This document shows, piece by piece, positions 5,062 through 56,454 of a stretch of DNA of 64,000 nt; within the stretch, counting starts at the first letter, position 1, and every line of letters starts with the position of its first letter. Under the pieces are notes generated by a model. It ran no database searches. It worked only from the letters and a program-made list of their open reading frames with translations, and was not told the DNA's origin. The position numbers and the translations under genes were made by a program. The DNA comes from Thermoanaerobaculia bacterium. Lineage in GTDB: Bacteria; Acidobacteriota; Thermoanaerobaculia; UBA5066; Gp7-AA6. The DNA lies in assembly GCA_038229875.1 (NCBI GenBank), contig JBBROA010000002.1:1713-65712 (forward strand), written 5' to 3'.

Positions 5062-6060
5062 CCGCACGCGGTAGACGAAGGGCTGGCGGGTGTACTCGCC
5101 GTTTTTTCCGCGCGACCACGGCCCCGTGAAAAACGGCAGGAACCGGAGGTCCTCGAACGTCACCACCGCGCCGCCGTCGGGCGAGGCCGTCACCGTCTCG
5201 AGAGGAAAGCGGGCGAACGCCAGGTACGTCTGCACGTCCGGCAGCGCTCGCGCGCGACGAAGCGGGACGGAGTCGGGAGGCCGGTCGAAGCTGCGGATTC
5301 GCGCTCTCTCGGGCGGCGGATAGAAGTCGGGCAGGCGGCGAAGCGCCTCGGACAGCCGATCCGGAACGTGCGGCATGGGCACCGACCGGGCGAACGGTCC
5401 GATGTCGAAAAAGCAGGCGTGGACCGACCCGGCGTGCTCCGAGAGCGCGAGCCAGCGGAAGGGGGAAAAAAGCTGGGGCATGACGGCGACGACGGCGCCC
5501 GGCGGCGGCCGGTCGATGCGGCGCCACGCTTCGAGCGCCCCGCCGTGCAGCACGGCGCAGAAGGCGATGTAAGAGGCGAGCGCCCCGCAGCCCCACGCCG
5601 CGATCTTGCGGCCGCTCGCCGGACGGACGAGTGTCAGGAGAAGCGTCACGAAACCAATTCCGGAAAAGAAGAGGTCGATGATGAAGAGGAGATCGAGCGA
5701 GTAGCGGGTCCTGCTGAACGGCGTGAAGAACATCGTCCCGAATGACGTGATCCAGTCGAAGAGGATGTGGGACGCGATCCCGACGGCCGCGAACATCCAG
5801 AGGTCGAGGAATCTCGCCTTTCGAAAAAAAAGCCGCGCGAGCGCCGCGACCCCGACGGCGAACAGCGGGAGGTAGACGAAGGAGTGACTCCATCCCCTGT
5901 GATTGCGGAGATAGTCGACCTGCGAGCCCAAAAAAAACGTGTCCGCGTCCGGCAGCATCGCGGCGAGAAAGCCGATCCAGAGCGCGGCGCGCGCCCCGGG
6001 GCGGGACGTCATTGATCGCGTGAGCATCGCTCCCACGAGGCCGTGGCTCGGCGTATCCAT
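5002..6060 (-). CDS. YdjM/DUF457-family membrane-bound metal-dependent hydrolase
   Basis: MDTPSHGLVGAML...DADTFF...NHRGWSHS matches the YdjM family pattern. It has multiple TM helices. Confidence 0.72.
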   Translation of the reverse strand: MDTPSHGLVGAMLTRSMTSRPGARAALWIGFLAAMLPDADTFFLGSQVDYLRNHRGWSHSFVYLPLFAVGVAALARLFFRKARFLDLWMFAAVGIASHILFDWITSFGTMFFTPFSRTRYSLDLLFIIDLFFSGIGFVTLLLTLVRPASGRKIAAWGCGALASYIAFCAVLHGGALEAWRRIDRPPPGAVVAVMPQLFSPFRWLALSEHAGSVHACFFDIGPFARSVPMPHVPDRLSEALRRLPDFYPPPERARIRSFDRPPDSVPLRRARALPDVQTYLAFARFPLETVTASPDGGAVVTFEDLRFLPFFTGPWSRGKNGEYTRQPFVYRVRLDGAGLVLESGFVVAGRAR

Positions 6061-6089
6061 GCGCGGCGGATGATAATCTCGCGCCCGTT

Positions 6090-6824
6090 TTGGCCCCGCA
6101 GTCCGAGCAGACGCTCCGGGATCGCGTGGCGCTCGTCACGGGCGCCTCGTCCGGCCAGGGCCGCGCGTTCGCGGAGGGGCTCGCGCGCGCCGGCGCCAGA
6201 GTCTTCGCGGTCGCCCGGCGGGAAGAGCTGCTCCGCTCGCTCGTCACCGAGATTTGCGATTCGGGCGGTGAGGCCGCGTATCACGTCGTCGACGTGCGCT
6301 CCATTCCCGCCGTTTTCGACCTCGTGGACGTCGTGCTCGCCCGCTATCGCCGCATCGACATCCTGATCAACGCCGCGGGCATCGGCTACCGCGCTCCGTT
6401 GATCGAGCTCAAGCGGTCGCAGATCGAGGAGATGCTCGCGACCGATCTTGCCGGAGCGATCTACCTGACCTCGGCGGCGCTGCCGTCACTGATCAAGAGC
6501 GCTCCCGCGCACATCGTGAACGTGGCCTCGATCGCGGGGCTCGAGGGGTTCGCCGAGGGCTCGGTCTACTGCGCCGCGAAACACGGGCTCGTGGGCTTCA
6601 CGCGCGCGCTCGCGCAGGAATTGAAACCGCAGGGGGTGCGCGTGACGGCGCTCTGCTCCGGGTCGGTCGACACCGAGTTCTTCGACCGTTTCCGTCCGAC
6701 CACGGAGAAGAGCCAGCGACTGCGGCCGGAAGATGTGTTGGCCGCGCTCCTCGGAATCCTGACGTCGCCGCCGCACGTGCTGCATGGCGAAGTCGTGCTG
6801 CGGCCGAGGGTCGTTCCGGCCTAG
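6090..6824 (+). CDS. SDR-family short-chain dehydrogenase/reductase
   Basis: VALVTGASSGQGRA is the TGxxxGxG motif; NAAG; YCAAKHG is the YxxxK motif. The TTG start at 6090 could instead be GTG at 6126. A TGATAAT -10-like box lies at about 6071. Confidence 0.85.
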   Translation: MAPQSEQTLRDRVALVTGASSGQGRAFAEGLARAGARVFAVARREELLRSLVTEICDSGGEAAYHVVDVRSIPAVFDLVDVVLARYRRIDILINAAGIGYRAPLIELKRSQIEEMLATDLAGAIYLTSAALPSLIKSAPAHIVNVASIAGLEGFAEGSVYCAAKHGLVGFTRALAQELKPQGVRVTALCSGSVDTEFFDRFRPTTEKSQRLRPEDVLAALLGILTSPPHVLHGEVVLRPRVVPA

Positions 6825-6940
6825 TCACCCCGGCGTGCCGACGGCGTTGCGATTCGATGCCGGAAGGGCGCGCCTTCACGGACCTGCCTCGCCCCGCTCG
6901 GCCCCGGCCCGCTGATTGGCCCGCCCCTATAATCGAGGGC

Positions 6941-7633
6941 ATGAGCTCCGTCCTTCTCGTCGACGACACCGGCCTCTTCGACGCTGTCGCCGACGACATC
7001 GCGCGACGGACCCACTGCCGCCCGCTGCGCGCCAGGAACGGGACGGAGGCGCTCGCGACCGCGCGGCGCGAGAAGCCGGACCTGATCTTCCTGGACGCCG
7101 AAATGTCGGGGATGACAGGGATCGACGTGTGTCGGGTACTGAAGGCGGACTCTCACCTCGGGCACCGTCCGGTCGTGGTCGCGGCGGCGACGCCGATCTC
7201 GGCGGACGCGGCCCGCCGCGCCGGTGCGGACGAGTGCATCGACAAGCCCTTCGACACCCCGGTCGTCTTCGACACGATGCGGCGGTACCTTCAGCTCTCG
7301 CCTCGCGACGCGGCGCGGGCGGCGGTCGAGTGGTCGGTGACGTTCTGGCGCGACGGCGCGCAGCACGAGGGCACTCTCCGCGACCTCTCGCGCGGCGGTT
7401 TCTTCATCCGGACTCCCGTGCGCCAACCAGTCGGCGCCAGGCTCGAGATCTCGTTCGAGCTGCCCGGACAGAAAGGCCGGACGGTCGTCGCGGAGGCGAT
7501 CGTGGTGCGCGTCGGGCAGGAATCGGACCGCGGACTCGGGTGCCGGTTCTTCCGGCTGACCGCGGGGTCGCGGACGCACCTCGAGGAGTGCCTGCGGCTG
7601 CTGGAGACGCCGGTGCCGGCGGGAAAGCGCTAG
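6941..7633 (+). CDS. response regulator: receiver domain fused to a C-terminal PilZ (c-di-GMP-binding) domain
   Basis: MSSVLLVDDTG...DLIFLDAEMSGMTG...KP is the receiver part. RDGAQHEGTLRDLSRGGFFIRT carries the RxxxR and DxSxGG PilZ motifs. A TATAAT lies 7 nt before the ATG, so a leaderless start is possible. Confidence 0.8.
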   Translation: MSSVLLVDDTGLFDAVADDIARRTHCRPLRARNGTEALATARREKPDLIFLDAEMSGMTGIDVCRVLKADSHLGHRPVVVAAATPISADAARRAGADECIDKPFDTPVVFDTMRRYLQLSPRDAARAAVEWSVTFWRDGAQHEGTLRDLSRGGFFIRTPVRQPVGARLEISFELPGQKGRTVVAEAIVVRVGQESDRGLGCRFFRLTAGSRTHLEECLRLLETPVPAGKR

Positions 7634-17222: not shown

Positions 17223-17298
17223 GCCGACGTAGCTCAGTTGGTAGAGCAGCGGTTTCGTAAACCGCAGGTCCCCGGTTCAAATCCGGGCGTCGGCTCCA
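17223..17298 (+). tRNA. tRNA-Thr (anticodon CGU)
   Basis: The read is GCCGACGTAGCTCAGTTGGTAGAGCAGCGGTTTCGTAAACCGCAGGTCCCCGGTTCAAATCCGGGCGTCGGCTCCA. The 7-bp acceptor stem GCCGACG/CGTCGGC closes it. The D-loop reads AGCTCAGTTGGTAGAGC. The anticodon loop reads TTCGTAA. The T-loop reads GGTTCAAATCC. CCA is encoded. Confidence 0.9.
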
Positions 17299-24263: not shown

Positions 24264-24608
24264 ATGGCCATCGCTCTCGCCGAAGAAAGTCCCGAAATCC
24301 AGCACAAGTCTCAGCGGGCGAACTTCCGCTGGACGCTGGCTTCGCCGTGGGACGAACAACGCCTGGCGGCTTTCCTCATGGTCAAACACCGCCGCAACGA
24401 CGCGGACTGGACGAGGCGCTCTTCCCCGTTCTTCGCCTCGCTCGGCCAGGACACGGTCGAATGTTCGGTCCCGATCACCGGTCCCGACGCCCTCCCGGAC
24501 CTGGAAAAACTCCTGACGCGCGAACTGCTGGGAATCCTCACCGGCGCGAGCCGGATCCACGACGAAATGGAAACCGGCAGCGACTGGCGGAGAGTCACAC
24601 CGCCGTAG
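24264..24608 (+). CDS. hypothetical protein
   Basis: Track ORF. It is located on an unoccupied stretch and has no recognisable motif. It lies upstream of the repeat element and the DGQHR gene. Confidence 0.35.
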   Translation: MAIALAEESPEIQHKSQRANFRWTLASPWDEQRLAAFLMVKHRRNDADWTRRSSPFFASLGQDTVECSVPITGPDALPDLEKLLTRELLGILTGASRIHDEMETGSDWRRVTPP

Positions 24609-24716
24609 TCGATCGATGTCGAGCGTCGACCCTTCAGCGACTCGTCTTTCCCCGTACCCTTCCCCCGGACAGTTTCCGCCGCGCGCGCGAAATGCACGCA
24701 ACTCCCTTCGGGCCTT

Positions 24717-24951
24717 CTCACCCCGACCCTCTCCCCGAGCGCGGACAGAGGGAGGTGGCGTCTCTCATCTCAATCTCGAATACGCTCGCCCGGAGAGGAG
24801 TCTCCTGACCGAAGGGAAGGAGGAGCCTCTCCGGGCGGGAGCGAAGCGAGCGGAGGGAGAAGGCGGGCGGTCGAAGGCCGCACCCGGCCGAGCCGCCCGC
24901 CGGTGCCGTTCGCGGCCGCGAACGGCAGCTCCCGGAGCGAGCGGAGCGACG
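24717..24951 (+). repeat. structured dispersed repeat, copy A (about 235 bp)
   Basis: About 85% identical to copy B. Internal hairpins are CCCTCTCC...GGAGAGGG, GGCGGGCGG...CCGCCCGCC and GCCGTTCGC-GGCC-GCGAACGGC. It lies in the 5' region of the DGQHR gene. Confidence 0.75.
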
Positions 24952-24984
24952 TTCTATACTCCCCCCAAAGATAAGGGGGCCAGG

Positions 24985-26109
24985 ATGCTGTCCGTTCCCT
25001 CACTCCGACTGAACCAGTTCGGCGTGCGGTTCTATGAGGCTCTGCTTTCCGGAGCGGATCTCCAGACACTCGTTGGTTTTGAGGTGCTGTCCTTCGGGGC
25101 CGGCAGCCAGACGACCCGCGGAAAAGCGAAGGCCGGCGGGCGGGTCAACTGGGAGTTCCTGGAGAAGAAGATCGGCTCGTCCGAACAGGCTTTCCAACGG
25201 CCGATCATCCAGAAGAAGATCGAGGAGCTGGTCGCCTACTACCTCCAATGCGCCGACTCCGGGACCCTGCCGGCGATCGCAGGCAGCGTGCTGTTAGTGT
25301 CCGAGAAGCGCCTCGACTTTGCCCCGTCGGGCGGGCGAAGCGACATCGGGACCCTGAAGCTGCCCGACGAAGGCGGCATCCTTCGAGCCCTGGACGGCCA
25401 GCACCGCCTGCTCGCGCTCCACCAGCTCGCCGAGAAGCACAACCTGAAGGACTTCCAGGTCCCCGCGGTCGTGTTCGACGCCCTGACCGCAGACCAGGTC
25501 GTCGAGCTCTTCGTCACGATCAACAGCAAGCACACGAAGCTGAACCCCTCGCACCTGATCTCTCTCTCGGGGCGCCGGCTCTACCGAGACGAGAATCTCG
25601 CCGCGGCGCACGACGTCATCCGCAGCCTGAACGAGGACGAGCACTCGCCTCTGCGCGGACAGATCAAGGTGCTCGGCATCGGAAAGGGCGCCGTGACGCA
25701 GGCCTCGCTCGCGGACGAGCTCCGCGACGTGTTCGCCGCGATGGACGCGGCGGGCGGGCGCATGGCGAAGGAGTTTCGTGAGAACGCCCGCCGCTTCTTT
25801 CTGAACTACTTCAAGGCCGCGGGGCGCGCTTTCCCGGCGGCGTTCGCGGGACGGAAATATTCGATCAAGAGCGCGACGTCCCTGCGAGCGTTCATCCGGA
25901 TCGTGCCCTACGTCATCGCGATGATCCGGAGCCGCGCCGGAGACGTGTGGTCGTCGGGAGAGCTCGACGCGGCGCTGCGGCCCTGGTCCGAGGCCGTAGG
26001 CGACAAGCGCTTCGAGACGGAAGGCGCATGGAAAGAGAAGATGACCGGCGGGACGCGCTCGGCCGTCGAGATCCTCGCGCGCGAGCTTCGACAGGGCTTG
26101 AACACCTGA
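24985..26109 (+). CDS. DGQHR-domain protein (DndB/DpdB-like, ParB/Srx fold)
   Basis: AAGGGGG Shine-Dalgarno. MLSVPSLRLNQFGVRFYEALLSG...ILRALDGQHRLLALHQL...VVELFVTINSKHTKLN matches the DGQHR family. Confidence 0.8.
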   Translation: MLSVPSLRLNQFGVRFYEALLSGADLQTLVGFEVLSFGAGSQTTRGKAKAGGRVNWEFLEKKIGSSEQAFQRPIIQKKIEELVAYYLQCADSGTLPAIAGSVLLVSEKRLDFAPSGGRSDIGTLKLPDEGGILRALDGQHRLLALHQLAEKHNLKDFQVPAVVFDALTADQVVELFVTINSKHTKLNPSHLISLSGRRLYRDENLAAAHDVIRSLNEDEHSPLRGQIKVLGIGKGAVTQASLADELRDVFAAMDAAGGRMAKEFRENARRFFLNYFKAAGRAFPAAFAGRKYSIKSATSLRAFIRIVPYVIAMIRSRAGDVWSSGELDAALRPWSEAVGDKRFETEGAWKEKMTGGTRSAVEILARELRQGLNT

Positions 26110-26176
26110 ATCGGGCGGCGGGCGGCCGGAACTCGCCGGCGTCTTTTTCGTAAGTCTCAGAGAGGAGCGGACCGCC

Positions 26177-26758
26177 ATGGGAGCCATCGGAGGGTGCCTT
26201 CTGATCATAGTCGTCGGGGCGTTTGCCGCCGCGATCTGGGCCATCTCGCGTTACAACAACCTGGTCACCCTGAAGAACCAGGTGGCCAACGCCTGGAAGC
26301 AGATCGACGTCCAGTTGAAGCGCCGGCATGACCTGATTCCAAACCTCATCGCCTCGGTGAAGGGCGAGATGCAGTTCGAGCAGGACACCCTGGAGAAGGT
26401 CATCCAGGCGCGCAACAGCGCGGTCACCGCGCGCGGCGTGGCCGACACGGCGGAAAAGGAGAATCAGCTCACGCAGACCCTTTCCCGGCTGTTCGCGCTT
26501 GCCGAGAACTACCCGAACCTGAAGGCGAACGAAAGCGTGAAAGCCCTGATGGAGGAGCTGACCTCGACCGAGAACAAGATCGGGTTCGCGCGCCAGTTCT
26601 ACAACGACATCGCCACCCGCTTCAACACGGTTCAGGAGGTCTTCCCCGATCAGTTCATCGCGCGCGCGTTCAACTTCCAGCACGTCGAGCTGTTCGAGAT
26701 CACCGAGCCCTCGGAGCGCGACGTCCCGGCCGTCGACCTGAGCCTGAAGCCGAAGTAG
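26177..26758 (+). CDS. lemA: LemA-family protein
   Basis: An N-terminal TM helix followed by ISRYNNLVTLKNQVANAWKQIDVQLKRRHDLIPNLI...LFALAENYPNLKANE is a typical LemA sequence. Confidence 0.85.
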   Translation: MGAIGGCLLIIVVGAFAAAIWAISRYNNLVTLKNQVANAWKQIDVQLKRRHDLIPNLIASVKGEMQFEQDTLEKVIQARNSAVTARGVADTAEKENQLTQTLSRLFALAENYPNLKANESVKALMEELTSTENKIGFARQFYNDIATRFNTVQEVFPDQFIARAFNFQHVELFEITEPSERDVPAVDLSLKPK

Positions 26759-26825
26759 CTGTCAGCAACCGGCTATCAGCTATCAGACTCGAGCTCCTCT
26801 CGATCGTTTCTCGAGCTGCTCGTTT

Positions 26826-26850
26826 CGTTTTCGCGCGAAACAGTTTTTCC
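26826..26850 (+). terminator. putative intrinsic terminator after lemA
   Basis: TTTCGCGCGAAA is a perfect palindrome and is followed by CAGTTTTTCC. Confidence 0.45.
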
Positions 26851-26881
26851 CAGGCTGAGAGCTGAAAGCTGAGAGCCTCCC

Positions 26882-27856
26882 ATGACAAACCTCTACGACC
26901 AGCAGCGCCACAACCTCCGCCGCACCGCCGGCCTTCTGGCCGGCTTTATCGCCTTCGTCACCGTGCTCGGAATGGGAGGGGATCTTTTTCTCTACGGGTC
27001 GGGCGCGAGCCCCGGCCTGCCCGTCCTGACCATCGGGGCGCTTCTTTTCGGCGGCGGCTCGGCTCTCTGGTCGCTCAAAGGAGGCGACCGGGCCGTCCTG
27101 GAATCCACGCACGCGCGGCCGCTCGACCGGTCGGACCCCCGCCACAAGCTGCTCGACAACGTGGTCGAGGAGATGGCGATCGCGTCGGGACTTCCGAAGC
27201 CTGCGGTGTACATCGTCCCGGACCCGGATCCGAACGCGTTTGCGACCGGCTCCGGGCCGGAAAAGTCATCAATCGCGGTGACCGCGGGACTCCTCGACGT
27301 CCTGAACCGCGAGGAGCTTCAGGCCGTCGTTTCGCACGAGATGTCGCATGTGAGGAACTACGACGTACGCGTGATGACGGTCGTCGCGGCGCTGGTCGGA
27401 TCGGTGCTGCTGATCTCCGACTGGGGCAGTCGAGGGTTGTCGTGGGGAGGCGGCCGGTCGAACGACGACGACGACAGCGGCGGCGGCGGCGGGCTCGGCA
27501 TTGTCTTCTTCGTGCTGTGGGTGGTCTCGCTCGTCCTCGCGCCGATCATCGCGCAGATCGTGGCGATGTCGGTCTCGCGGGAACGCGAATACCTCGCGGA
27601 CGCCACAGGCGCCGAGCTGACACGCAATCCTCTGGCGCTAGCCTCCGCTCTCGAAAAGATCGCCGCGGCGGTCGAGCCGACACGCTCGATCAAGCAGGGC
27701 GTCGCCCATCTCTGCATTGAGGACCCGCGGGGCCGCGCGATCAACGAGCGGGCGGGGATGTTCTCGAACCTGTTCGCGACCCACCCGCCGATCGCCAGGC
27801 GCATCGCACTCCTGAGAGAGATGGCGTATCAGATCCCGGGAGGCGTGAGGGGTTAG
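26882..27856 (+). CDS. M48-family HtpX-like zinc metalloprotease
   Basis: N-terminal TM helices; AVVSHEMSHVRNYD carries HExxH; a second membrane segment and a downstream Glu in EREYLADATGAE. This pairing with LemA is common. Confidence 0.85.
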   Translation: MTNLYDQQRHNLRRTAGLLAGFIAFVTVLGMGGDLFLYGSGASPGLPVLTIGALLFGGGSALWSLKGGDRAVLESTHARPLDRSDPRHKLLDNVVEEMAIASGLPKPAVYIVPDPDPNAFATGSGPEKSSIAVTAGLLDVLNREELQAVVSHEMSHVRNYDVRVMTVVAALVGSVLLISDWGSRGLSWGGGRSNDDDDSGGGGGLGIVFFVLWVVSLVLAPIIAQIVAMSVSREREYLADATGAELTRNPLALASALEKIAAAVEPTRSIKQGVAHLCIEDPRGRAINERAGMFSNLFATHPPIARRIALLREMAYQIPGGVRG

Positions 27857-27877
27857 GGGTTAGGGGTCAGGCCGGGA
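27848..27877 (+). repeat. G-quadruplex-capable telomere-like heptad repeat at the 3' end of the htpX-like gene
   Basis: GGGGTTA, GGGGTTA, GGGGTCA, then GGCCGGG. This gives four or more G-runs. Confidence 0.6.
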
Positions 27878-27916
27878 AGGATCGGGCGCCAGGCGCGAAG
27901 CGCCGCAACGCTCTCT

Positions 27917-28204
27917 CTAATCCAGGTCGAAATCGCGGATCGGTCGCGAGTCGTCCTTCTTGGCCCGGTCGAAGAGCTCGTCGAACTTCCGGTTCAGCAC
28001 GTCCTTCTTCGACTTCTCCGCCTCGACCGAGGCGTTGAATTTCTTTTCGCGCTCGATGTCGTGCGTCTTTAAGGCGCCGATGGCGTCATCGACGGACTGG
28101 AACGTGCGGGCAACCTTCGGCGCCTCATGGGCGATGACCGCCTTCAGCTCCGGGTCGATCTTCAACCGCGCGTTGCAGCAGGGGCAGAGAAGCTCGAAGT
28201 CCAT
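27917..28204 (-). CDS. small zinc-ribbon-like protein (CPCC motif)
   Basis: MDFELLCPCCNARLKIDPELKAV...; 95 aa with a charged C-terminal half. Confidence 0.5.
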   Translation of the reverse strand: MDFELLCPCCNARLKIDPELKAVIAHEAPKVARTFQSVDDAIGALKTHDIEREKKFNASVEAEKSKKDVLNRKFDELFDRAKKDDSRPIRDFDLD

Positions 28205-28320
28205 GGCGGAAGTGTAACGGAGCGAAGGAGGGGAAGCGACCGGCGGAGGCTGAGTCGATTAGCGCTGCGGCTGATTTCGCGTAGTCAGGTGGGCTGAACA
28301 GCATCAACTGCCTGCGGCCC

Positions 28321-28548
28321 CTCACTCCAACCCTCTCCCCCGGCGCGGTGAGAGCTGCGCGCTCGCCCGCGGTGGCGAATACGCTCGCATCGAGAGGAGT
28401 CTCCCGACCAGAGGGAGGGAGGAGCCTCTCGATGCGGGAGCCGCAGCGAACGGAGGGAGCAGGCGAACGGTCGAGCCGACAGGCGAGCCGTTCGCCGGTG
28501 CCTTCGCCGCGACGGCGAAGGCAGCTCGCGCAGTGAGCGGAGGCGACG
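28321..28548 (+). repeat. structured dispersed repeat, copy B (about 228 bp)
   Basis: Homologous to copy A. Its hairpins carry compensatory substitutions: GGCGAACGG...CCGTTCGCC and GCCTTCGCCG-CGA-CGGCGAAGGC. Its 3' end abuts the TAA stop of the Hsp15-like gene. Confidence 0.75.
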
Positions 28549-28549
28549 A

Positions 28550-28945
28550 TTAGAACCCTTTCCGCTCACGGCGCTCCCGGCGCTCGCGCCGGTCGGGGCG
28601 GCCGGCGTCCTCGCGGGGCGCTAGCATCCGGTCCAGCCTTCTCGCTTCCGCCACCTCGGGAGACGGCGGCGGGGTTGTGTCCTCGTACAGCTGACGCGCC
28701 TGCGCCTTCGGGATCGATCGCGAGGCCAGCCCCTTGACGACCAGGATCCGGGAGTCTCCCCGCGAGGAGCTGATCGTGAGCCGATCGCCGATCCGGACCT
28801 CGCGGTGCGGCTTCGCACGCGCGCCGTTGACGTCGACTTTTCCTCCCTCGATCGCCGCTTTCGCCTGGGACCGCGTCGGGTAGACGCACGCCACATCGAG
28901 CCAGACATCGAGTCGGACGGTCGTCGCGGGGTCGGAGGCGCTCAG
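28550..28945 (-). CDS. Hsp15/HslR-like S4-domain RNA-binding protein (start uncertain, probably non-canonical)
   Basis: VRLDVWLDVACVYPTRSQAKAAIEGGKVDVNGARAKPHREVRIGDRLTI is an S4 domain. The C-terminus is Arg/Glu-rich. The only in-frame start after the EAL stop is CTG at about 28945. The longer track ORF reads through the EAL gene region. Confidence 0.6.
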   Translation of the reverse strand: MSASDPATTVRLDVWLDVACVYPTRSQAKAAIEGGKVDVNGARAKPHREVRIGDRLTISSSRGDSRILVVKGLASRSIPKAQARQLYEDTTPPPSPEVAEARRLDRMLAPREDAGRPDRRERRERRERKGF

Positions 28946-35604: not shown

Positions 35605-36942
35605 ATGTCGAAAAAGAACAAAAACGGTCTGACCCGCCGGCAGTTCGTGAAGGTGACGGGAACGGGGGCGCTCGCCGCAGGGGTCGGCGCCAACTTCCTG
35701 TTCCCGGCGCGCGCTGCGGCGCAGCAGAAGACGCTTCGCATCATCCAGTGGAGCCATTTCGTTCCGGGCTACGACAAGTGGTTCGACAACACGTACACGA
35801 AGGAATGGGGCGCGAAGAACAACACGAACGTCGTCGTGGACCACATTGCGATCGGGGAGATCAACGCCCGCGCGGCCGCGGAGGTCTCGGCGAAGAAGGG
35901 TCATGACCTGTTCATGTTCCTCTCCCCTCCCGCGGCTTACGAAAAGCAGGTCATCGACCACTCCGAGATCTACCAGACCGTCGAAAAGAAGCACGGCAAA
36001 AAGATCGATCTCGCGCACAAATCGACCTACAACCCGAAGACGAAGAAATACTTCGCGTTCTCGGACTCCTATGTGCCCGACCCGGGCAATTACCGGAAGG
36101 ATCTCTGGGAAAAAGTCGGATACCCGAACGGGCCCGACACCTGGGAAGACCTCCGCATCGGCGGCAAGAAGATCAAGGACAGCGTCGGAAACCCGGTCGG
36201 AATCGGGCTCTCGCAGGAGCTCGACACCAACATGGCCGTTCGGGCGCTTCTCTGGTCCTACGGCGGGTCCGAGCAGGACGAGAACGGCAATGTCACGATC
36301 AATTCGAAGCAGACCGTGGAAGCCCTCAAGTACATGCGCGCGATGTTCAAGGAGTGCATGACCCCCGAGGTGTTCACCTGGGATCCCTCCTCGAACAACC
36401 GGGGCATCCTGGCCGGCAAGCTGTCGTTCGTCGCCAACGCGATCTCGGTGACGCGCACCGCGGAGAAGGACAACCCGGAGATGTCGAAGAACATCCAGGT
36501 GGCCCCGGCCTTGAAGGGCCCGGTCCGCCGGATCGCGGCGGAGCACGTCATGGACTGCTACGCGATCTGGAACTTTGCCGAGAACCAGGAGGGCGCCAAG
36601 CAGTTCTTAGTCGACTACATCGACAACTTCGGCGCGGCGTTCAAGGCGAGCGAGTTCTACAACTTTCCCTCGTTTCCGAGCACGGTCCCCGACATCAAGG
36701 CGCAGCTCGCGAACGATCCGAAGGGCGTTCCGAACGACAAGTACAAGGTCCTGTCCAACGTCCTCGAATGGGCGACCAACGTGGGATACCCGGGGTACGC
36801 GACCGCCGGAATCGACGAGGTCTTCAACACCTTCGTTCTGCCGACCATGTTCGCCCGCGCGGCGCGCGAAGAGGTCACGCCGGAGGAGGCCGTGAAGACC
36901 GCGGAAGCGGAGATCAAGCGCATCTTCGCCAAATGGAAGTAA
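35605..36942 (+). CDS. ABC transporter substrate-binding protein (Tat signal), operon 1
   Basis: GAAGGAGG Shine-Dalgarno. TRRQFVKVTGTGALAAGVG is a twin-arginine signal. It is a paralogue of the SBP at 55070. Confidence 0.85.
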   Translation: MSKKNKNGLTRRQFVKVTGTGALAAGVGANFLFPARAAAQQKTLRIIQWSHFVPGYDKWFDNTYTKEWGAKNNTNVVVDHIAIGEINARAAAEVSAKKGHDLFMFLSPPAAYEKQVIDHSEIYQTVEKKHGKKIDLAHKSTYNPKTKKYFAFSDSYVPDPGNYRKDLWEKVGYPNGPDTWEDLRIGGKKIKDSVGNPVGIGLSQELDTNMAVRALLWSYGGSEQDENGNVTINSKQTVEALKYMRAMFKECMTPEVFTWDPSSNNRGILAGKLSFVANAISVTRTAEKDNPEMSKNIQVAPALKGPVRRIAAEHVMDCYAIWNFAENQEGAKQFLVDYIDNFGAAFKASEFYNFPSFPSTVPDIKAQLANDPKGVPNDKYKVLSNVLEWATNVGYPGYATAGIDEVFNTFVLPTMFARAAREEVTPEEAVKTAEAEIKRIFAKWK

Positions 36943-36963
36943 GAAGGTAAGCTCACCCGCGCC

Positions 36964-38046
36964 ATGGCCATAGTCCAGACGCGGGCACTCACCAAAGTCT
37001 TCAAAAAGGGCGAGCTCGGCGCCGTGAACAGCGTGGACCTGGAGAGCCGGGAGGGCGAGTTCCTCGTCCTCCTCGGCCCGTCCGGGTCCGGTAAAACGAC
37101 CCTTCTCCGGATGATAGCGGGGCTCGAGGAGCCCACGTCCGGCGAGATCCTGATCGGCGGCCGCGTCGTCAACGACATGACGCCGCGCGAGCGCCGGATC
37201 GCGATGGTCTTCCAGAGCTACGCGCTCTATCCCCACCTGACCGTGCTCGGCAACATCGTCTTCCCTCTGAAGGCGCAGGGCATGGAAAAAGGAGAGCGCC
37301 AGAAGAAGGCCGAGTGGGCCGCGGGCCTTCTCGGGATCGGGCAGCTCCTCCATAGAAAGCCGCGGGAGCTTTCGGGCGGCGAGCGCCAGCGTGTCGCGCT
37401 CGCGCGGGCGATCGTGCGGGAGCCCTCGCTCTTCCTGCTCGACGAGCCGCTCTCGAATCTCGACGCGAAGCTGCGAGCCTCGGCGCGGACGGAGCTCGAG
37501 CAGTTCCAGCGACGCGTCGCCACCACGACCATCTACGTGACGCACGACCAGGTCGAAGCCATGGCGATGGGCGACCGCATCGTCGTCATGAACAAGGGAC
37601 TGGTCCGACAGATCGGCACGCCGGCCGAGGTCTACGACGAGCCGGCGGACACCTTCGTCGCCACCTTCCTGGGTTCGCCGCCGATGAACCTGATCGACCT
37701 CGGAGAGGTGACGGTTGGATTTCGGCCCGAGCACTTCTTCCCGGTGACCCATCTCGCGGGACAGGCCGCGGTGCCTGCCGATATGCGCGCGGACGCGCGC
37801 GTGGGCCCCTACGTTCCCCTGAAGTTCCGGCTGAGCCACGAGGAATACCTGGGCGCGGAGAGGATCCTCTACGGCCAGCTCGAGGGCGGGAAGTTCGACG
37901 GTAAGCCCGCCGTGTCGCGAATGTCGTCGACGCACGGCGCGGTCTACGAAAGCGGATCGGTGCACGCGTTCGCCGTCCGGCAGGAGGATCTCAAGTTCTT
38001 CGACCGGGAGAAGGGCACCCGGACCGAACCCGTCCCGCTTTCATGA
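36964..38046 (+). CDS. ABC transporter ATP-binding protein (MalK/UgpC-like), operon 1
   Basis: GPSGSGKTT, LSGGERQRVALARA, LLDEPLSNLD and a C-terminal TOBE-like region. Confidence 0.92.
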   Translation: MAIVQTRALTKVFKKGELGAVNSVDLESREGEFLVLLGPSGSGKTTLLRMIAGLEEPTSGEILIGGRVVNDMTPRERRIAMVFQSYALYPHLTVLGNIVFPLKAQGMEKGERQKKAEWAAGLLGIGQLLHRKPRELSGGERQRVALARAIVREPSLFLLDEPLSNLDAKLRASARTELEQFQRRVATTTIYVTHDQVEAMAMGDRIVVMNKGLVRQIGTPAEVYDEPADTFVATFLGSPPMNLIDLGEVTVGFRPEHFFPVTHLAGQAAVPADMRADARVGPYVPLKFRLSHEEYLGAERILYGQLEGGKFDGKPAVSRMSSTHGAVYESGSVHAFAVRQEDLKFFDREKGTRTEPVPLS

Positions 38047-38930
38047 GCGCTCTCGGGCGGCAGCGCTGGCTCGGGCCGGCCATGTTCCTCCTGGCCATCC
38101 TCTACGTGGTGGCGCTCGTTGGAGTTCCGTTCGTGCTCGCCTTTCTCTACAGCGTCGGCGACGTCAAGGTCGGCAGCGTCGGCTACCACTTCGTCGGCCT
38201 CGCGAACTTCAAGTCCGTCCTGCAGAACCCGACCTTCCTGCGCTCGCTGAGAAACTCCTTCGTCTTCACGATCTCTTCGCAGGTGCTCGTGCTCCTGGGA
38301 GCCAACATCCTCGCGATGGCGTTGAAAAACGTTTTCCCCGGGCGGCGCTTCGTCCGATTCCTGATCCTCCTCCCTTGGGTCGCCCCCGTTTCGATCGGCT
38401 CGATCGGCTGGAAGTGGATTCTCGATTCTCTCTACAGCGTCATCAACTGGGTGCTCATCCGGTTCCACCTCGCCAACGAGTTTTCGCCGCCAATGTATCT
38501 CGGCGAACCGAAGCTCGCCATGATCTCGGTCATCCTCGTGCACACGTGGCACATGCTCCCCTTCGCGACGGTGATCATCCTGGCGGGGTGGACCGCCATT
38601 CCGAAGGACATCCCGGAGGCGGCCGAGGTCGACGGGGCGAAGTTCTTCCGGAAGCTGTTCCAGATCGAGCTGCCGATGATGCTGCCGATCATCAACGTCG
38701 CGGTGCTCTTCGGCGTGATTTTCACGTTCACCGACATGACCGTGGTGTACATCCTGACCCGCGGGGGACCTTACGACACGACACAGGTTCTTCCGTCGCA
38801 GGCGTTCTTCACCGGGATCCTCGGAGGCGACCTCGCGGAGGGCGCGGCCATTTCTCTCTTCCTCGTTCCGCTGCTCGTGCTCGTTGCGTGGCTGATGCTG
38901 CGCTCGGCGCACCGCGCGGAAGTGACGTAG
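38043..38930 (+). CDS. ABC transporter permease (MalF/UgpA-like), operon 1
   Basis: 6 TM helices and an EAA-like loop (AAEVDGAKFFRKLFQIELPMM). ATGA overlap with the ATPase gene. Confidence 0.88.
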   Translation: MSALGRQRWLGPAMFLLAILYVVALVGVPFVLAFLYSVGDVKVGSVGYHFVGLANFKSVLQNPTFLRSLRNSFVFTISSQVLVLLGANILAMALKNVFPGRRFVRFLILLPWVAPVSIGSIGWKWILDSLYSVINWVLIRFHLANEFSPPMYLGEPKLAMISVILVHTWHMLPFATVIILAGWTAIPKDIPEAAEVDGAKFFRKLFQIELPMMLPIINVAVLFGVIFTFTDMTVVYILTRGGPYDTTQVLPSQAFFTGILGGDLAEGAAISLFLVPLLVLVAWLMLRSAHRAEVT

Positions 38931-38940
38931 GCAGGAATTC

Positions 38941-39792
38941 ATGGCGATTGGTCTGAAGGCGCGGAAAGGGTTCGGCCGGGTCGTCCACGTCCTAGTGCTG
39001 CTGTTCTTCTCGGTCGCGCTCGGATTCCCCTTCTACTGGATGGTGATCACGAGCTTCAAGCAGAACCCGGACCTTTACAACCTGAAGAACAACCCGTTCA
39101 TTTTCAGCATGAAGCCGACGCTCGATCACATAACGTTCCTGTTCCGGGAGACCCTGTTTCTCCGCTGGTTCGGCAACACGCTTTTCGCGGGGTTCTGCGT
39201 CGTCGTCATCACCCTTCTCCTCGCGGTCCCCGCCGCGTATGCGCTGACGAGGCTGACCGGACGCTGGGGCGGAAACGTCGGCATCGCGATCTTCCTGACC
39301 TATCTCGTCCCTCCGACGCTGCTCTTCATTCCCCTCTCCAGGATCGTCGCCCTCCTCGGGCTGCAGGACACACTCTGGTCGATCATCGTCGTGTACCCGA
39401 GCTTCACCATTCCTTTCTCGATCTGGCTCCTGATGGGGTTCTTCAAGTCGATCCCGCGCGAGCTGGAAGACGCCGCCATGGTGGACGGCCTGACACGCTT
39501 CCAGGCGTTCATCAAGCTCGTGATCCCGATCTCCGTGTCCGGAATCCTCACGGTCGTGATCTTCACCTTCACGCTGGTGACGCAGGAGTTCGTCTACGCG
39601 CTGACGTTCATCTCCTCGGCGTCGCATCAGACCGTCGGGGTCGGCGTACCGATCTATCTCGTCCGCGGCGACGTGTATTACTGGGGGTCGCTGATGGCGG
39701 CGTGCCTCATCTCGGCGCTTCCGATCGGTATTCTGTACAACCTGTTCCTCGACCGCTTCATCGCGGGGTTCACCGTGGGGTCGGTGAAGTAG
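38941..39792 (+). CDS. ABC transporter permease (MalG/UgpE-like), operon 1
   Basis: 6 TM helices and an EAA loop (DAAMVDGLTRFQAFIKLVIP). Confidence 0.88.
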   Translation: MAIGLKARKGFGRVVHVLVLLFFSVALGFPFYWMVITSFKQNPDLYNLKNNPFIFSMKPTLDHITFLFRETLFLRWFGNTLFAGFCVVVITLLLAVPAAYALTRLTGRWGGNVGIAIFLTYLVPPTLLFIPLSRIVALLGLQDTLWSIIVVYPSFTIPFSIWLLMGFFKSIPRELEDAAMVDGLTRFQAFIKLVIPISVSGILTVVIFTFTLVTQEFVYALTFISSASHQTVGVGVPIYLVRGDVYYWGSLMAACLISALPIGILYNLFLDRFIAGFTVGSVK

Positions 39793-40962: not shown

Positions 40963-41892
40963 TCAGCGGCGGTCGCCCCAGGATTCGCCCGCGAGGAAGC
41001 GCGACGTGATTCCGCCGTACGCGTCGATGCGGCGGTCGCGCAGAAACGGCCAGTTGCGGCGCACGTCTTCGATCCGTGCCGGGTTCACCTCCGCCATCAG
41101 GATTTCCTCACGATCCGCGGACGCCTGAGCGACGATCACTCCCTGAGGGTCCGCGATGAACGAGTTGCCCCAGAACTCGATTCCGGCGCCACCGCCCTCC
41201 GGGATCTCGTGGCCGACCCGGTTGGCGGCACCGACATAGAGGCCGTTAGCGATCGCGTGCCCTCTCTGGACGGTGCGCCAGGCGTCGAGCTGGGCGGCGC
41301 CCTGTTCGGCCTTCTCGTGCGGATGCCAGCCGATGGCGGTCGGATAGAAGAGCACGTCCGCTCCCTGGAGCGCCGCCATTCGCGCGCCCTCCGGATACCA
41401 CTGGTCCCAGCAGATCAGGGTCGAGATGCGGCCGGGGCCGACGTCGAAAGCGGGAAATCCGAGGTCCCCCGGCGTGAAGTAGAACTTCTCGTAGTACGCC
41501 GGATCGTCCGGGATGTGCATCTTCCGGTAGACGCCGGCGATCGAGCCGTCGGGCGCGATGATTGCCGCGCTGTTGTGGTACAGCCCCGCGGCCCGGCGCT
41601 CGAAAACGGGCGCCACGATGGCGACGTGCCCGCGCCGCGCCGCCTCGGAGAGTCGCGCCGTCGTGGGGCCCGGAAGGGGCTCCGCGAGGTCGAAAGTCGC
41701 GGCATCTTCTTTCTGGCAGAAGTACCTGGACCGGAAGAGCTCCGGAAGGCACACGACGGCGGCGCCCTGGCGCGCGGCCTCTTCAACCTTGAGAGCGCCC
41801 CGCTCGAGGTTCTCGTCCGGATCGGGCCCGCACGCCATCTGAACGAGCGCGATGCGGTAAGGCTTCTTCGCCGGGACGGCGGTCGTGGTCAC
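40963..41892 (-). CDS. aguB: N-carbamoylputrescine amidase (CN-hydrolase)
   Basis: RIALVQMA...VVCLPELF...CWDQWYPE carries the Glu-Lys-Cys nitrilase-fold triad. It is adjacent to aguA. Confidence 0.88.
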   Translation of the reverse strand: MTTTAVPAKKPYRIALVQMACGPDPDENLERGALKVEEAARQGAAVVCLPELFRSRYFCQKEDAATFDLAEPLPGPTTARLSEAARRGHVAIVAPVFERRAAGLYHNSAAIIAPDGSIAGVYRKMHIPDDPAYYEKFYFTPGDLGFPAFDVGPGRISTLICWDQWYPEGARMAALQGADVLFYPTAIGWHPHEKAEQGAAQLDAWRTVQRGHAIANGLYVGAANRVGHEIPEGGGAGIEFWGNSFIADPQGVIVAQASADREEILMAEVNPARIEDVRRNWPFLRDRRIDAYGGITSRFLAGESWGDRR

Positions 41893-41935
41893 GACCGAAT
41901 ACTACCGTCGCATCCGCCACGGCGGGCATGGCGCG

Positions 41936-41985
41936 CCACCTCCCTCCCCGCGCCCGGGGAGACGAGCGGGGTGAGGGGGCTCGGC
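41936..41985 (-). repeat. reverse-orientation fragment (copy D) of the structured repeat
   Basis: The reverse complement reads GAGCCCCCTCACCCCGCTCGTCTCCCCGGGCGCGGGGAGGGAGGTGG. This matches the 5' module of copy C, CGCCCCCTCACCCCGGCCCTCTCCCCCGGCGCGCGGGGAGAGGGAGCGG. Confidence 0.55.
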
Positions 41986-42013
41986 CCGCTCAGAATGCGA
42001 CAGTGAAACGGCG

Positions 42014-46760: not shown

Positions 46761-46824
46761 CCGGGTTTACGCGAGTTGCAACCGGCGTCTGTGACGAGTC
46801 CTGTCAGGCCTGATTCGCCGCCCC

Positions 46825-46922
46825 CTCACCCCGGCCCTCTCCCCCGGCGCGCGGGGAGAGGGAGCGGAAGGGAGCAGCGAGCGGAGCCGCCCTTGCGCCT
46901 CAGGGAGTGAGCGGAGGCGACG
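46825..46922 (+). repeat. structured dispersed repeat, short copy C (about 98 bp)
   Basis: CCCTCTCCCCCGGCGCGCGGGGAGAGGG forms a perfect 10-bp-stem hairpin. The 3' end GAGTGAGCGGAGGCGACG is shared with copies A and B and supplies the last 8 codons plus the stop of the tautomerase gene. Confidence 0.7.
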
Positions 46923-47298
46923 CGTAGGACGCGAGTCCCTTCCCGAACGACCAGTTCTCCTTCGGCACTTCGACGAGCGTCACCAGGATGTCCTCCGGCC
47001 GGACGCCCGGATCGGCCGCCAGGTTCTCGGCAATCGCCGCGTAGAGCGCGCGCTTTTTTTCGAGCGTTCGCCCGGCGTTCAGCGTGATCTGAATGACGAG
47101 GAACCCCGCGCCTCTCGCGATCCCGAGATAGCCCGGGTCGTAGATCAGCTCGTCTTCCTCGTGTTCCGAAAAGATCTGAAAGCGGTCGTCCGGCGGGACG
47201 TCGATCGTCTTGACCATCGCCCGGTGGATACCGTCTCCGACGGCGGCGCGGAAGGCGGAAGGCTGTCCTTCGCGAATCGAAACTCGGACCAGCGGCAT
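46900..47298 (-). CDS. tautomerase-superfamily protein (N-terminal Pro1)
   Basis: MPLVRVSIREGQ...; about 130 aa. It resembles a 4-oxalocrotonate tautomerase-like tandem fold. Confidence 0.68.
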   Translation of the reverse strand: MPLVRVSIREGQPSAFRAAVGDGIHRAMVKTIDVPPDDRFQIFSEHEEDELIYDPGYLGIARGAGFLVIQITLNAGRTLEKKRALYAAIAENLAADPGVRPEDILVTLVEVPKENWSFGKGLASYASPPLTP

Positions 47299-55069: not shown

Positions 55070-56374
55070 ATGAAGGATCGTCCGAAAAAAGAGAGCCGTT
55101 TCGGGATCGGCCGGCGGGAATTCCTGAAGGCGACGCTGGCGGCCGGCGCGGCCCTCGCGGCGCCGACGGTGTTCGTCCGCAACGTCTTTGCGCAGGACCG
55201 GGTGCTCAAGGTCGTGCACTGGAAACACTTCGTCCCCGACTACGACAAGTATTTCGACGTGTTCGCCAAGGAGTTCGGAGAGAAGAACAAGTGTCGGGTC
55301 GAGGTCGACTACGTCGCCACCGCCGACCTGCCGACGGCCATCGCCGCCGACATCTCGCGGCGCGGCGGCCACGATGTGTTCCATCTGAACGGCACCGGCG
55401 CGTGGCTCTACGACCAGATTTTGGTCGACGTGTCCGAGGTCGCGAACCGGCTCGGCAAGGAGTTCGGTGGCTGGCTCCCGGAGGCGAAGGACATCGGCAT
55501 GGTGCGCGGGAAGTGGCTGGCGGTGCCCTCCTGGTACATCGCCTATCCGTTCATCATCAATCGGGGCTACTTCAACCAGGTCGGGGCTGACTACACGGAC
55601 AAGACCACCTGGCAGGATCTTCTCGTCTCGGGCGCGAAGCTGAAGAAGGCCGGTTATCCCTTCGGCATCCCCTACTCGCAGACACCGGACGCCAACGACA
55701 ACCTCCTTCCTCTGATGCTTTCGTTCAAGGCGTACCTCTATGACAAGGACGGAAAGGTCAACTTCCGCAAGAAGGAGATCGTCGACGTCCTGAAGTTCGG
55801 CGAACAGTTCTTCAAGGAGACGATGACGGACGAGGTTCTCTCGTGGGACGACACCTCCAACAACCGTTTCATCGCGTCGGGTAAGGGCTCGCTGGTCTGC
55901 AATCCCATCAGCGCGTATCGCACGGCCGCGAAGGACAACCCGGACGTCTACAAGAATCTCGAAGTCGTCAAGACGCCCCTCGGTCCCGCCGGTCGGGTCA
56001 ACGGCGCCCGCACGATGTCGTACGGCATCTACAACTTCTCCAAGGCCCAGGACCTCGGCAAGGAATTTCTCTATGCGATGAATACCGCGGGCCTCAAGGG
56101 CATGGAAGCGTCCACCGGCTACAACCATCCGATGCTGAAGGCGTTCTGGAATAAGCCGATGCCGGTTCTCGGGCACGAGCCGAAGCTCGAGCTTCTGCAG
56201 GAGTTCCAGAACGACGTGAAGTTCATCGGCTATCCCGGCCCGATGACGAAGACGGCGACGACCATGTACGCCAAGTTCATCGTGCCGACGATGTTCGCGG
56301 AAGTCGCCAAGGGCAAGTCGCCCCGCGCGGCGATGGAAGACGCGGAGCAGAAGCTGCGGGCGGTTAGCGTCTGA
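55070..56374 (+). CDS. ABC transporter substrate-binding protein (Tat signal), operon 2 (paralogue of 35605)
   Basis: GRREFLKATLAAGAALAAP. It aligns along its length to SBP1 (HWKHFVPDYDKYFD against QWSHFVPGYDKWFD). Confidence 0.85.
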   Translation: MKDRPKKESRFGIGRREFLKATLAAGAALAAPTVFVRNVFAQDRVLKVVHWKHFVPDYDKYFDVFAKEFGEKNKCRVEVDYVATADLPTAIAADISRRGGHDVFHLNGTGAWLYDQILVDVSEVANRLGKEFGGWLPEAKDIGMVRGKWLAVPSWYIAYPFIINRGYFNQVGADYTDKTTWQDLLVSGAKLKKAGYPFGIPYSQTPDANDNLLPLMLSFKAYLYDKDGKVNFRKKEIVDVLKFGEQFFKETMTDEVLSWDDTSNNRFIASGKGSLVCNPISAYRTAAKDNPDVYKNLEVVKTPLGPAGRVNGARTMSYGIYNFSKAQDLGKEFLYAMNTAGLKGMEASTGYNHPMLKAFWNKPMPVLGHEPKLELLQEFQNDVKFIGYPGPMTKTATTMYAKFIVPTMFAEVAKGKSPRAAMEDAEQKLRAVSV

Positions 56375-56454
56375 AGGTGCGCGCCGGGCGCCGGGCGGGG
56401 GCGGAATTTCGCCTCTTCCCGGCGTCTGCTCTCCCCTCCTCGTAAACCTGCCCC

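Follow-up and report, generated by a model that had tools for sequence, protein, structure and literature searches.

Hairpin-rich mosaic repeats between the genes of a Thermoanaerobaculia bacterium: an apparently undescribed family, probably of the REP/BIME kind

What kind of element repeatedly occupies the gaps between unrelated genes in a Thermoanaerobaculia genome, and why does it keep its hairpins while their sequences change? The window analysed here is a stretch of 64,000 nucleotides (contig JBBROA010000002.1, assembly GCA_038229875.1), in which an earlier note, made from the sequence alone, had pointed out four copies of a dispersed repeat. All four, here called A to D, were found where the note had placed them. 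The 5' module CCCTCACCCC-GR-CCCTCTCCCC matches the window at 24715, 28319 and 46823 on the plus strand and at 41956-41977 on the minus strand, four matches against 0.02 expected by chance. The copies are members of a large non-coding, hairpin-rich repeat family located between Thermoanaerobaculia genes. The family is apparently previously undescribed, as no description turned up in full-text literature searches that covered the family, the repeats of Thermoanaerobaculia and the bacterial occurrence of the motif. The explanation that we consider likely is a mosaic repeat under structural selection, similar in kind to the repetitive extragenic palindromes (REPs) and bacterial interspersed mosaic elements (BIMEs), the Rhizobium intergenic mosaic elements (RIMEs) and the pneumococcal BOX elements.

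Copies A (24716-24951) and B (28318-28548) are both full-length members of a repeat of approximately 240 nt and align end to end by BLAST (E = 3e-35). Their identity, previously put at roughly 85%, amounted to 75.8% over 240 aligned columns, with 85% reached only in a 66-nt core. The long copies fold as a series of hairpins, beginning with H1 (CCCTCTCCCC...GGGGAGAGGG) and continuing through a small H1b, a long central H2, H3 and H4 to a purine-rich tail. Including the recurrent alpha linker in front of H1, both have the architecture alpha-H1-H2-H3-H4-tail. The positions given earlier for the elements stood, with the exception of the starts, since repeat sequence reaches approximately 30-45 nt further upstream as the alpha linker (24687-24715 and 28273-28317). 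Copy C (gamma-H1-tail) is an internally deleted form whose hairpin, CCCTCTCCCC-cggcgcgc-GGGGAGAGGG, is indeed perfect, and copy D is a lone 5' hairpin consisting of H1 alone. A third match to the 3' tail in the window, at 44476, falls within the coding sequence of thrA and does not exceed chance level (3 matches compared to 0.46 expected; 3 were reached in 1 of 100 shuffles). The copies are intergenic, as had been noted, the sole exception being the tail of C, which overlaps the end of a tautomerase gene. Their parts are the following:

24687-24715, plus strand: alpha linker of copy A (GCGAAATGCACGCAACTCCCTTCGGGCCT), the recurrent sequence 5' of H1; an alpha-type flank is found in 63/146 family members
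24716-24752, plus strand: 5' box (TCTCACCCC) and H1 hairpin (24727-24752) of copy A, partly decayed
24784-24842, plus strand: H2 of copy A, long central hairpin with the unique compensated stem CCCGGA/TCCGGG
24862-24901, plus strand: H3 hairpin of copy A (GGCGGGCGG...CCGCCCGCC)
24904-24927, plus strand: H4 hairpin of copy A (TGCCGTTCGC-GGCC-GCGAACGGCA)
24928-24951, plus strand: purine-rich 3' tail of copy A (..GAGCGAGCGGAGCGACG), ending 3 nt 5' of the -10 box TATACT (24955-24960) of the DGQHR-domain gene
approximately 28218-28272: additional tail-like stretch of copy B, 5' of the alpha linker, which is missing from empty orthologous sites too
28273-28317, plus strand: alpha linker of copy B
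28318-28354, plus strand: 5' box (CCCCTCACTCC) and H1 (28331-28354) of copy B, with decayed 3' arm
28383-28441, plus strand: H2 of copy B, with the unique compensated stem CATCGA/TCGATG
28462-28496, plus strand: H3 of copy B (GGCGAACGG...CCGTTCGCC)
28499-28523, plus strand: H4 of copy B (TGCCTTCGCCG-CGA-CGGCGAAGGCA), near the family consensus
28524-28548, plus strand: 3' tail of copy B, ending 1 nt from the reverse-strand TAA (28550-28552) of the Hsp15/S4-domain gene
41939-41979, minus strand: copy D, a solo diverged 5' box and H1 between thrC and a carbamoylputrescine amidase gene
46796-46922, plus strand: copy C, with gamma linker (46796-46820), 5' box, perfect H1 (46835-46862) and 3' tail (46898-46922), lacking H2-H4

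The folding of A and B was stronger than that of shuffled sequence on both strands (z = -5.2/-5.4 on the plus strand and -3.6/-4.9 on the minus strand), and the consensus fold has a predicted energy of -140 kcal/mol on the plus strand compared to -130 kcal/mol on the minus strand. The compensated stems quoted in the earlier note proved exact, with GGCGGGCGG/CCGCCCGCC in A against GGCGAACGG/CCGTTCGCC in B for H3, and GCCGTTCGC/GCGAACGGC against GCCTTCGCCG/CGGCGAAGGC for H4. Its claim of covariation in two hairpins is right for H3 and H4 but incomplete, as the largest covarying hairpin, H2 (24784-24842 and 28383-28441), had been overlooked. Pairing was assessed for 62 local pairs in 23 aligned full copies, using as controls 500 shuffles and alignments in which the 3' partners were slid by 1-3 columns. 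Paired cells reached 93.7%, compared to 88.8% in the shuffles and 46-54% with slid partners, while 18 pairs were changed on both sides, compared to 9.7 in the shuffles and 1-8 with slid partners; for either measure, none of the 500 shuffles reached the observed value. H2 was 98.5% paired over 20 pairs, 6 of them covarying. Its variable stem was present as 14 haplotypes in 49 copies, of which 8 are different and perfectly complementary and one, an apparent recombinant, is broken. Other compensated stems were found in distant copies without H1, e.g. CGGCGCGAGG/CCTCGCGCCG in contig L113.

The fold is maintained in its imperfections as well. Four T.G wobbles are fixed on the plus strand, each in 30/33 to 60/63 copies (126 copies aligned with a hidden Markov model, HMM), the internal loops are also conserved, and H2 has loops and linkers whose sequences hardly vary from species to species. 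Sporadic mismatches showed no strand asymmetry (24 G.U compared to 21 A.C). Selection for a particular fold is the better reading of these features, because copying of a palindrome from arm to arm should erase such wobbles and loops. Judged from these sequence comparisons, the hairpins appear to be under selection for pairing, with compensatory changes in all three large ones, and the fold may act as RNA, as single-stranded DNA, or as both.

The extent of the family was assessed by scanning a pattern that fits all four 5' modules of the window (27 nt) against one genome per species. At least 112 stretches contained the pattern and, among the matches listed, all but three came from metagenome-assembled genomes (MAGs) of seven Thermoanaerobaculia/Acidobacteriota species. 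The matches lie very often at contig ends, which is expected since repeats break assemblies. An HMM built from 24 full copies and run on the fetched stretches gave 164 hits, which were merged into 155 elements. Among these, 27/155 run in full length from H1 to tail, 49/155 consist of H1 only, 18/155 of H1 and H1b, and 9/155 of H1 with part of H2-H4 but without the tail, while 8/155 have H1 and the tail with an internal deletion, the form of copy C. A further 41/155 are cut by the end of the stretch, and 3/155 are of other types. The 112 fetched stretches thereby contain no fewer than 27 full-length members, along with over 100 partial ones. Almost all of the 155 elements include the H1 hairpin, and only 15/164 hits lie within called open reading frames (ORFs).

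The elements are assembled from a small set of parts. H1 is a REP-like unit of approximately 45 nt, in which a C-rich box, CCCCTCACCCC, is followed by the hairpin CCCTCTCCCC-loop-GGGGMGAGGG, and it occurs alone, in direct tandem via an alpha or beta linker, or as an inverted doublet around a gamma linker. On its 3' side may come a module of approximately 190 nt, made up of the small hairpin H1b, the large hairpins H2, H3 and H4, and the purine-rich tail GAGCGRAGGCGACG(GTT). On its 5' side three linkers recur, so the flank there is not random. The alpha linker (GATCACCGCAGTGGCGAAnACGCAnCGCCTGCCTGCGGGC) precedes H1 in the 63 members mentioned above, A and B included, and often has a decayed H1 on its own 5' side. 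The beta linker (GGGGACGCCGTAAGC...TTCTCGGCGCCGCCTTCC...AGTCCCG) comes after another H1 in direct orientation, and the gamma linker (CTCGAGTCCTGTCAGGCTTGATGTGCCG) lies between two inverted H1 units, as in the doublets of L031, L051, L027 and L053; in copy C the partner H1 is absent. Beta and gamma linkers recur in several species, and tandem elements with a tail-GACT-H1 joint are also present.

Within H1, the box CCCCTCACCCC nearly duplicates the 5' arm CCCTCTCCCC, so that the 3' arm GGGGCGAGGGG can pair with either of them in two registers (24716-24752, 28318-28354 and 46821-46862; consensus 1-45). On the opposite strand, GGGGAGAGGGTTGGGGTGAGGGG, four G-tracts are separated by loops of at most 3 nt, a sequence of the G-quadruplex/i-motif type. 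A G-quadruplex was nevertheless rejected as the main fold of H1, as ViennaRNA with G-quadruplex terms, a crude energy model, gave hairpins as the minimum-energy fold of the G-rich strand. A quadruplex-containing H1 fold was predicted only once and marginally, for copy C with DNA parameters.

Comparison of orthologous sites revealed how the copies reached their places. Copy A is flanked by p114, a small conserved gene (24264-24608, plus strand), and a DGQHR-domain gene (ATG at 24985, plus strand), while B is flanked by p95, a conserved gene for 95 amino acids (27917-28204, minus strand), and the Hsp15/S4-domain gene (minus strand, stop at 28550-28552). As p114 and p95 lie there, both of the long regions that the earlier note had taken as intergenic consist of a real small gene plus a repeat. 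For the comparison, 80 metagenomic loci with an HtpX orthologue were fetched, in which the cluster p114-DGQHR-LemA-HtpX...p95(-)-Hsp15(-)-EAL(-) is conserved. At the A site, the gap between p114 and the DGQHR-domain gene measures 64-212 nt in the orthologs compared to 376 nt in the window. In the empty sites the -10 box (TATAAT), the ribosome-binding site (AAGGGGG) and the ATG are all kept, and copy A occupies the place of the -35 region, with the -10 box TATACT retained. At the B site, many orthologs are empty and read TGA-gcg-TAGACTT-ttctc-ATG, so that no more than 25 nt hold the stop of hsp15 and both the -10 box and the ATG of p95. In the window, approximately 330 nt of repeat separate the TAA stop from the -10-like TTACACTT, compared to a few to approximately 25 nt in most orthologs. 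Because the same sites are empty in most related contigs, A and B are insertions.

The window is syntenic with two contigs, L080 (JBDUBI01) and L050 (JBBSGZ01), at approximately 75-83% nucleotide identity, and therefore stems from a related species of Thermoanaerobaculia. The A site is occupied in L080 as well, where the contig ends within the element, and L050 has, at the C site, a long copy of alpha type instead of the short gamma-type copy of the window. Likewise, L001 and L063, which are 91% identical, have three occupied sites in common with different module content. Between them an H1-alpha unit was gained or lost, an H3-H4-tail segment was lost and the H1 hairpin was deleted. The family is thus mostly inherited vertically, with local module turnover and lineage-specific insertions.

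Long hairpins unrelated to this family were also observed at the equivalents of the B site (L113:3157-3329, L114:3950-4122 and L115:6485-6658) and of the A site (L115:2476-2619, L127:3920-4066 and L163:1464-1595). These are inverted arrays of short tandem repeats (heptamers), namely (GTCGGTA)n...(TACCGAC)n, (GTCGACA)n...(TGTCGAC)n and (GATTGAn)...(TCAATC)n, with predicted energies of -32 to -55 kcal/mol. The same gaps between stop codon and -10 box hold different hairpin elements in different lineages, an observation in favour of strong hairpins being somewhat beneficial at, or attracted to, these places.

The element has a sharply defined 3' end, ...GAGCGRAGGCGACG, after which GTT or a duplicate of GTTGGCGACGG is often found. 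A TA is found no more than 16 nt past the tail in 27/34 copies compared to 7/34 control windows, with TTA as the commonest context and a TTA-to-tail spacing that varies from 0 to 13 nt. In 10/30 cases (with a crude gene caller) the TTA is the stop of an opposite-strand gene at 1-18 nt from the tail, and copy B is an eleventh case, missed by the caller. Here the earlier statement that the shared 3' end adjoins the TAA of the Hsp15-like gene was correct, the tail stopping 1 nt short of a gene on the other strand. Other tails adjoin a TATAAT-like box of a same-strand gene. The elements are enriched between convergent genes (24/72, background 88/430) and depleted between divergent genes (9/72, background 76/430), whereas their orientation in co-directional gaps is random (18 sense and 21 antisense).

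From the two proposals of the earlier note, a MITE/REP-like mobile element (MITE, miniature inverted-repeat transposable element) or a small-RNA family, what survives is the dispersed, structured element of REP-like type; neither the classical MITE nor the small-RNA gene family does. In such a REP/BIME-like system the elements would be non-autonomous, and their copying would depend on an enzyme that acts in trans and recognises hairpins in folded single strands. The most likely type would be an enzyme similar to the REP-associated tyrosine transposases (RAYTs) or to those of IS200/IS605, although no particular mobilising enzyme can be named with more than low confidence. The elements would survive only at gene boundaries. 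If transcribed from either side, their hairpins could act as stable 3' stem-loops, forming a barrier to read-through or protecting mRNA ends, a role that would account for the continued selection on pairing.

Several observations weigh against this explanation. No U-tract terminators were seen around A or B, and a tblastn search of approximately 1.18 Mb of DNA with a RAYT consensus gave no match, which is a weak negative, as the DNA searched comprised only fragments of the genomes. Most described REP families carry a GTAG or CGTC tag beside the stem (PMC3733652). H1 has neither, its flanks being CCCCTCACCCC-AA and GG-CAGAGC, and membership of the REP-RAYT system fails on this tag. Owing to the mosaic left side and the diverged orthologous intergenic DNA, the comparison of filled and empty sites gave no 5' boundary, exact unit or target, and the TTA/TA junction could reflect survival of insertions at harmless AT-rich gene boundaries instead of a target preference. 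Moreover, the loci were recruited via the H1 pattern, so that the class counts and the conservation of H1 are biased and copies without H1, which exist in the metagenomic relatives L113, L114 and L154, are under-sampled. Finally, the plus strand folds better and has the fixed T.G wobbles, which together hint at one functional strand, and the random orientation to transcription fits a role at the DNA level better than the RNA role proposed above.

The hint at one functional strand leads to the first alternative, in which the plus strand of approximately 240 nt functions as a structured RNA gene or cis-regulatory RNA, be it a trans-acting small RNA, a GGA/GGAGG protein sponge, a leader or an element of the 3' untranslated region. 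The strong covariation, the near-invariant loops and linkers of H2 and the better folding of the plus strand are in line with this idea, as are the four fixed wobbles, which would be A.C mismatches on the other strand. G.T wobbles are, however, tolerated in single-stranded DNA hairpins too, and the sporadic mismatches are shared evenly between G.U and A.C. Neither promoter-like nor terminator-like sites were found in or around A or B, and the Rfam check suggested in the earlier note gave no match for A or B at E <= 10 other than chance-level microRNA and long non-coding RNA hits far below thresholds. Most members are truncated or modular, with modules that differ between close species, the copies overlap gene ends and supply stop codons, and their orientation relative to the neighbouring genes is random. 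Taken together, an RNA family is an unlikely explanation.

The same near-invariant loops, fixed wobbles and better-folding strand are the grounds for a related proposal, which we hold to be improbable, namely that the H2-H4 module is a specific folded ligand, as RNA or single-stranded DNA, of a dedicated protein of this lineage. The module could, for instance, serve as RNA to guide or scaffold a nuclease or recombinase of transposon origin, or it could be the structure recognised by a new mobilisation system that is directed by hairpins and has no transposase nearby.

The family could alternatively be a non-autonomous derivative of the palindrome-associated IS200/IS605 type, with subterminal hairpins at both ends and insertion beside a short TAA/TTA target, in which case H2-H4 could be a relic or active transposon guide-RNA scaffold of the omega-RNA kind. 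The layout of the element partly agrees with this. It lacks terminal inverted repeats, no target duplication is visible, each end has a hairpin close by (H1 at one, H4 approximately 25 nt from the other), and a conserved TTA/TA is present at one junction only. The hairpins are imperfect, with strand-specific wobbles, and the central fold is long and conserved. On the other hand, the fetched genome fragments contained no TnpA (Y1) or TnpB gene, and no pair of ends flanking a coding region was found among the fetched loci. The TTA-tail spacing of 0-13 nt is unlike the exact cleavage sites of that family, the far end borders recurrent linkers instead of random flank, and no match to HEARO or other Rfam transposon RNAs was obtained. 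An origin of this type is therefore quite improbable. Multi-copy transposase-like ORFs were likewise absent from the fetched loci, where clustering of ORFs with high G+C at third codon positions gave only paralogue groups of housekeeping type (8-kb stretches).

A MITE of the classical kind, mobilised by cut and paste through a DDE transposase, would share the length of 100-300 nt, high copy number, intergenic location, presence/absence polymorphism and internal-deletion derivatives. It is largely refuted by the ends of the element and thus very unlikely. The inverted termini claimed earlier (CTCACYCC...GGRGTGAG) shrink in the family consensus, which begins CCCCTCACCCC... and ends ...GAGCGGAGGCGACG, to the 5 nt CTCAC/GTGAG and are not terminal inverted repeats. 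Furthermore, filled and empty A and B sites show no target-site duplication, only TA-containing sequence at both B junctions (the 5' boundary being uncertain), and no related transposase gene was found in the fetched loci.

Chance GC-rich similarity, segmental duplication and small protein-coding genes, which the G+C content of 59-73% (2-kb windows) and the several reading frames open across the element might suggest, are refuted by the matches of the 5' module and the A-B alignment far beyond expectation, by boundaries and structure that are conserved (the two ways in which the earlier note had allowed for being wrong were their absence and duplication of a single locus), by dozens of copies in unrelated gene contexts of seven species without duplication of the flanking genes, and by frame-breaking 1-nt indels between copies, with a translated 94-amino-acid ORF across B having no relatives among 5.8 billion proteins. 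Integron attC sites and clustered regularly interspaced short palindromic repeats (CRISPR) were dropped on layout, without a dedicated test, as the copies stand singly among housekeeping genes and not in arrays.

The REP/BIME-like repeats have left marks on neighbouring genes. Copy C lies between thrA (minus strand, start at 46760) and the tautomerase gene (46900-47298, minus strand). Its tail was said to provide the last eight codons and the stop of the latter; the stop is confirmed (TGA of ORF 46900-47298), while the codons are the last seven (ASPPLTP). The Hsp15-like gene ends in ...KGF-TAA in the window (28550-28560) compared to ...KGW-TGA in nearly all insertion-free orthologs, and the arrival of B may have rewritten its last codon and stop. 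The gap that holds copy D is bounded by two minus-strand genes, thrC with its stop at 42014 and the carbamoylputrescine amidase gene starting at 41892. In the window this gap contains only D (41893-42013), whereas the syntenic L050 has approximately 2.4 kb more (5094-7510), encoding a ribose-5-phosphate isomerase A-like protein and an oxidoreductase dependent on flavin adenine dinucleotide. Copy D may mark the scar of a deletion or rearrangement.

Some observations concern the genes around A and B. The cluster of p114 (114 amino acids), the DGQHR-domain protein, LemA and an HtpX-type M48 protease (24264-27856) keeps its order and orientation in dozens of soil-metagenome contigs (L113-L192), across which the DGQHR protein is 84-91% identical, unusually conserved for a domain that is usually tied to DNA-modification or defence loci. 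The p95 protein begins MDFELLCPCCNARLKIDPELK and carries a CxxC motif. In many relatives a -10-like box (TAGACTT, TAAACTT or TTACACTT) lies 5-6 nt 5' of its ATG (window 28202-28217, minus strand; L119, L128, L133, L138, L144 and L189), a spacing which suggests that the p95 mRNA is leaderless or near-leaderless, and in empty sites this box starts 3-15 nt past the hsp15 stop codon.

Elsewhere in the window, the stretches 35741-39099 and 55212-59065, approximately 19.5 kb apart, contain segments of 72-77% identity to each other, arranged in the same order in both, and are unrelated to the hairpin family. They are probably paralogous ABC-transporter operons, and ORF 36943-38043 groups with multi-copy ABC-type ORFs. 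A tRNA gene at 17223-17295 (RF00005, 74 bits) is all that Rfam recognises in the window when its gathering threshold is applied.

Soils and sediments harbour abundant Thermoanaerobaculia, which are known almost exclusively through fragmented MAGs. With its numerous copies at contig ends, the family explains many of the assembly breaks in these MAGs, and it can serve as a lineage marker. Since copies rewrite gene ends, supplying stop codons and C-terminal residues (the tautomerase gene and possibly the Hsp15-like gene), and displace the -35 region of the DGQHR-domain gene, they also bear on annotation and regulation. In addition, eight compensated versions of one stem, together with presence and absence at orthologous sites, constitute a data set on hairpin selection in bacterial repeats.

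Among known systems, the closest likeness is to the REPs and BIMEs of Escherichia coli and to the REPINs (doublets of REPs) of Pseudomonas. As in these, many intergenic sites carry a copy of a short, imperfect and GC-rich palindrome, and H1 combines with a small set of linkers into mosaics, including inverted doublets around a short spacer as in REPINs. The enrichment after gene ends and between convergent genes is also similar, as is the mostly vertical inheritance with local gain and loss, and the stems are kept by compensatory change. In contrast to REPs and BIMEs, which have no such module, H1 is often fused to the module of approximately 190 nt with three more large hairpins and near-invariant loops, and the tail end of the family has a conserved TTA/TA junction. 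Nor do the elements alternate regularly in orientation like BIMEs, as alpha and beta linkers give direct H1 tandems, which are common, and only gamma gives inverted ones.

REPs of the CGTC type have the tag directly beside a stem of 8-9 bp that starts with A/T pairs, a loop of 4-5 nt and a CCA tail (Di Nocera et al. 2013, PMC3733652). The reverse strand of the present element begins CGTCGCC, and in both cases no dedicated transposase lies nearby. Membership was rejected on geometry, as the CGTC is approximately 26 nt from the nearest hairpin (H4), whose stem of 11 bp is GC-rich.

The BOX elements of Streptococcus pneumoniae and the RIMEs of Rhizobium are modular, non-coding intergenic repeats of 100-300 nt with predicted stem-loops and with sub-units in variable number and combination. 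The modular, multi-hairpin, non-coding build of the H1 family is the same, while the host phylum differs and the sequences are unrelated with the exception of H1. The terminal modules of BOX, moreover, pair with each other, which the ends of the H1-H4 element do not.

For H1 itself the resemblance extends to sequence. A look-alike was found on pSymB of Sinorhizobium meliloti 1021 (1467046-1467084; L193:401-439), reading CCCCTCACCCT-AG-CCCTCTCCCC-GCGCGC-GGGGAGAGGG, and H1-like matches of 82-90% identity lie in the intergenic DNA of 134 plasmid or megaplasmid records (Sinorhizobium, Azospirillum, Rhizobium and Sphingomonas). With near-identical copies in alphaproteobacterial megaplasmids, the H1 unit is not confined to Acidobacteriota. 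The alphaproteobacterial hairpins differ in having few detectable copies per replicon and no alpha, beta or gamma linker, and the H2-H4 module had no match in the plasmid or phage collections. H1 may represent an ancient REP class common to Acidobacteriota and Alphaproteobacteria, and if the two units are homologous, this class would span phyla. The family as a whole is a new example of the known REP/BIME kind and not a new kind of system.

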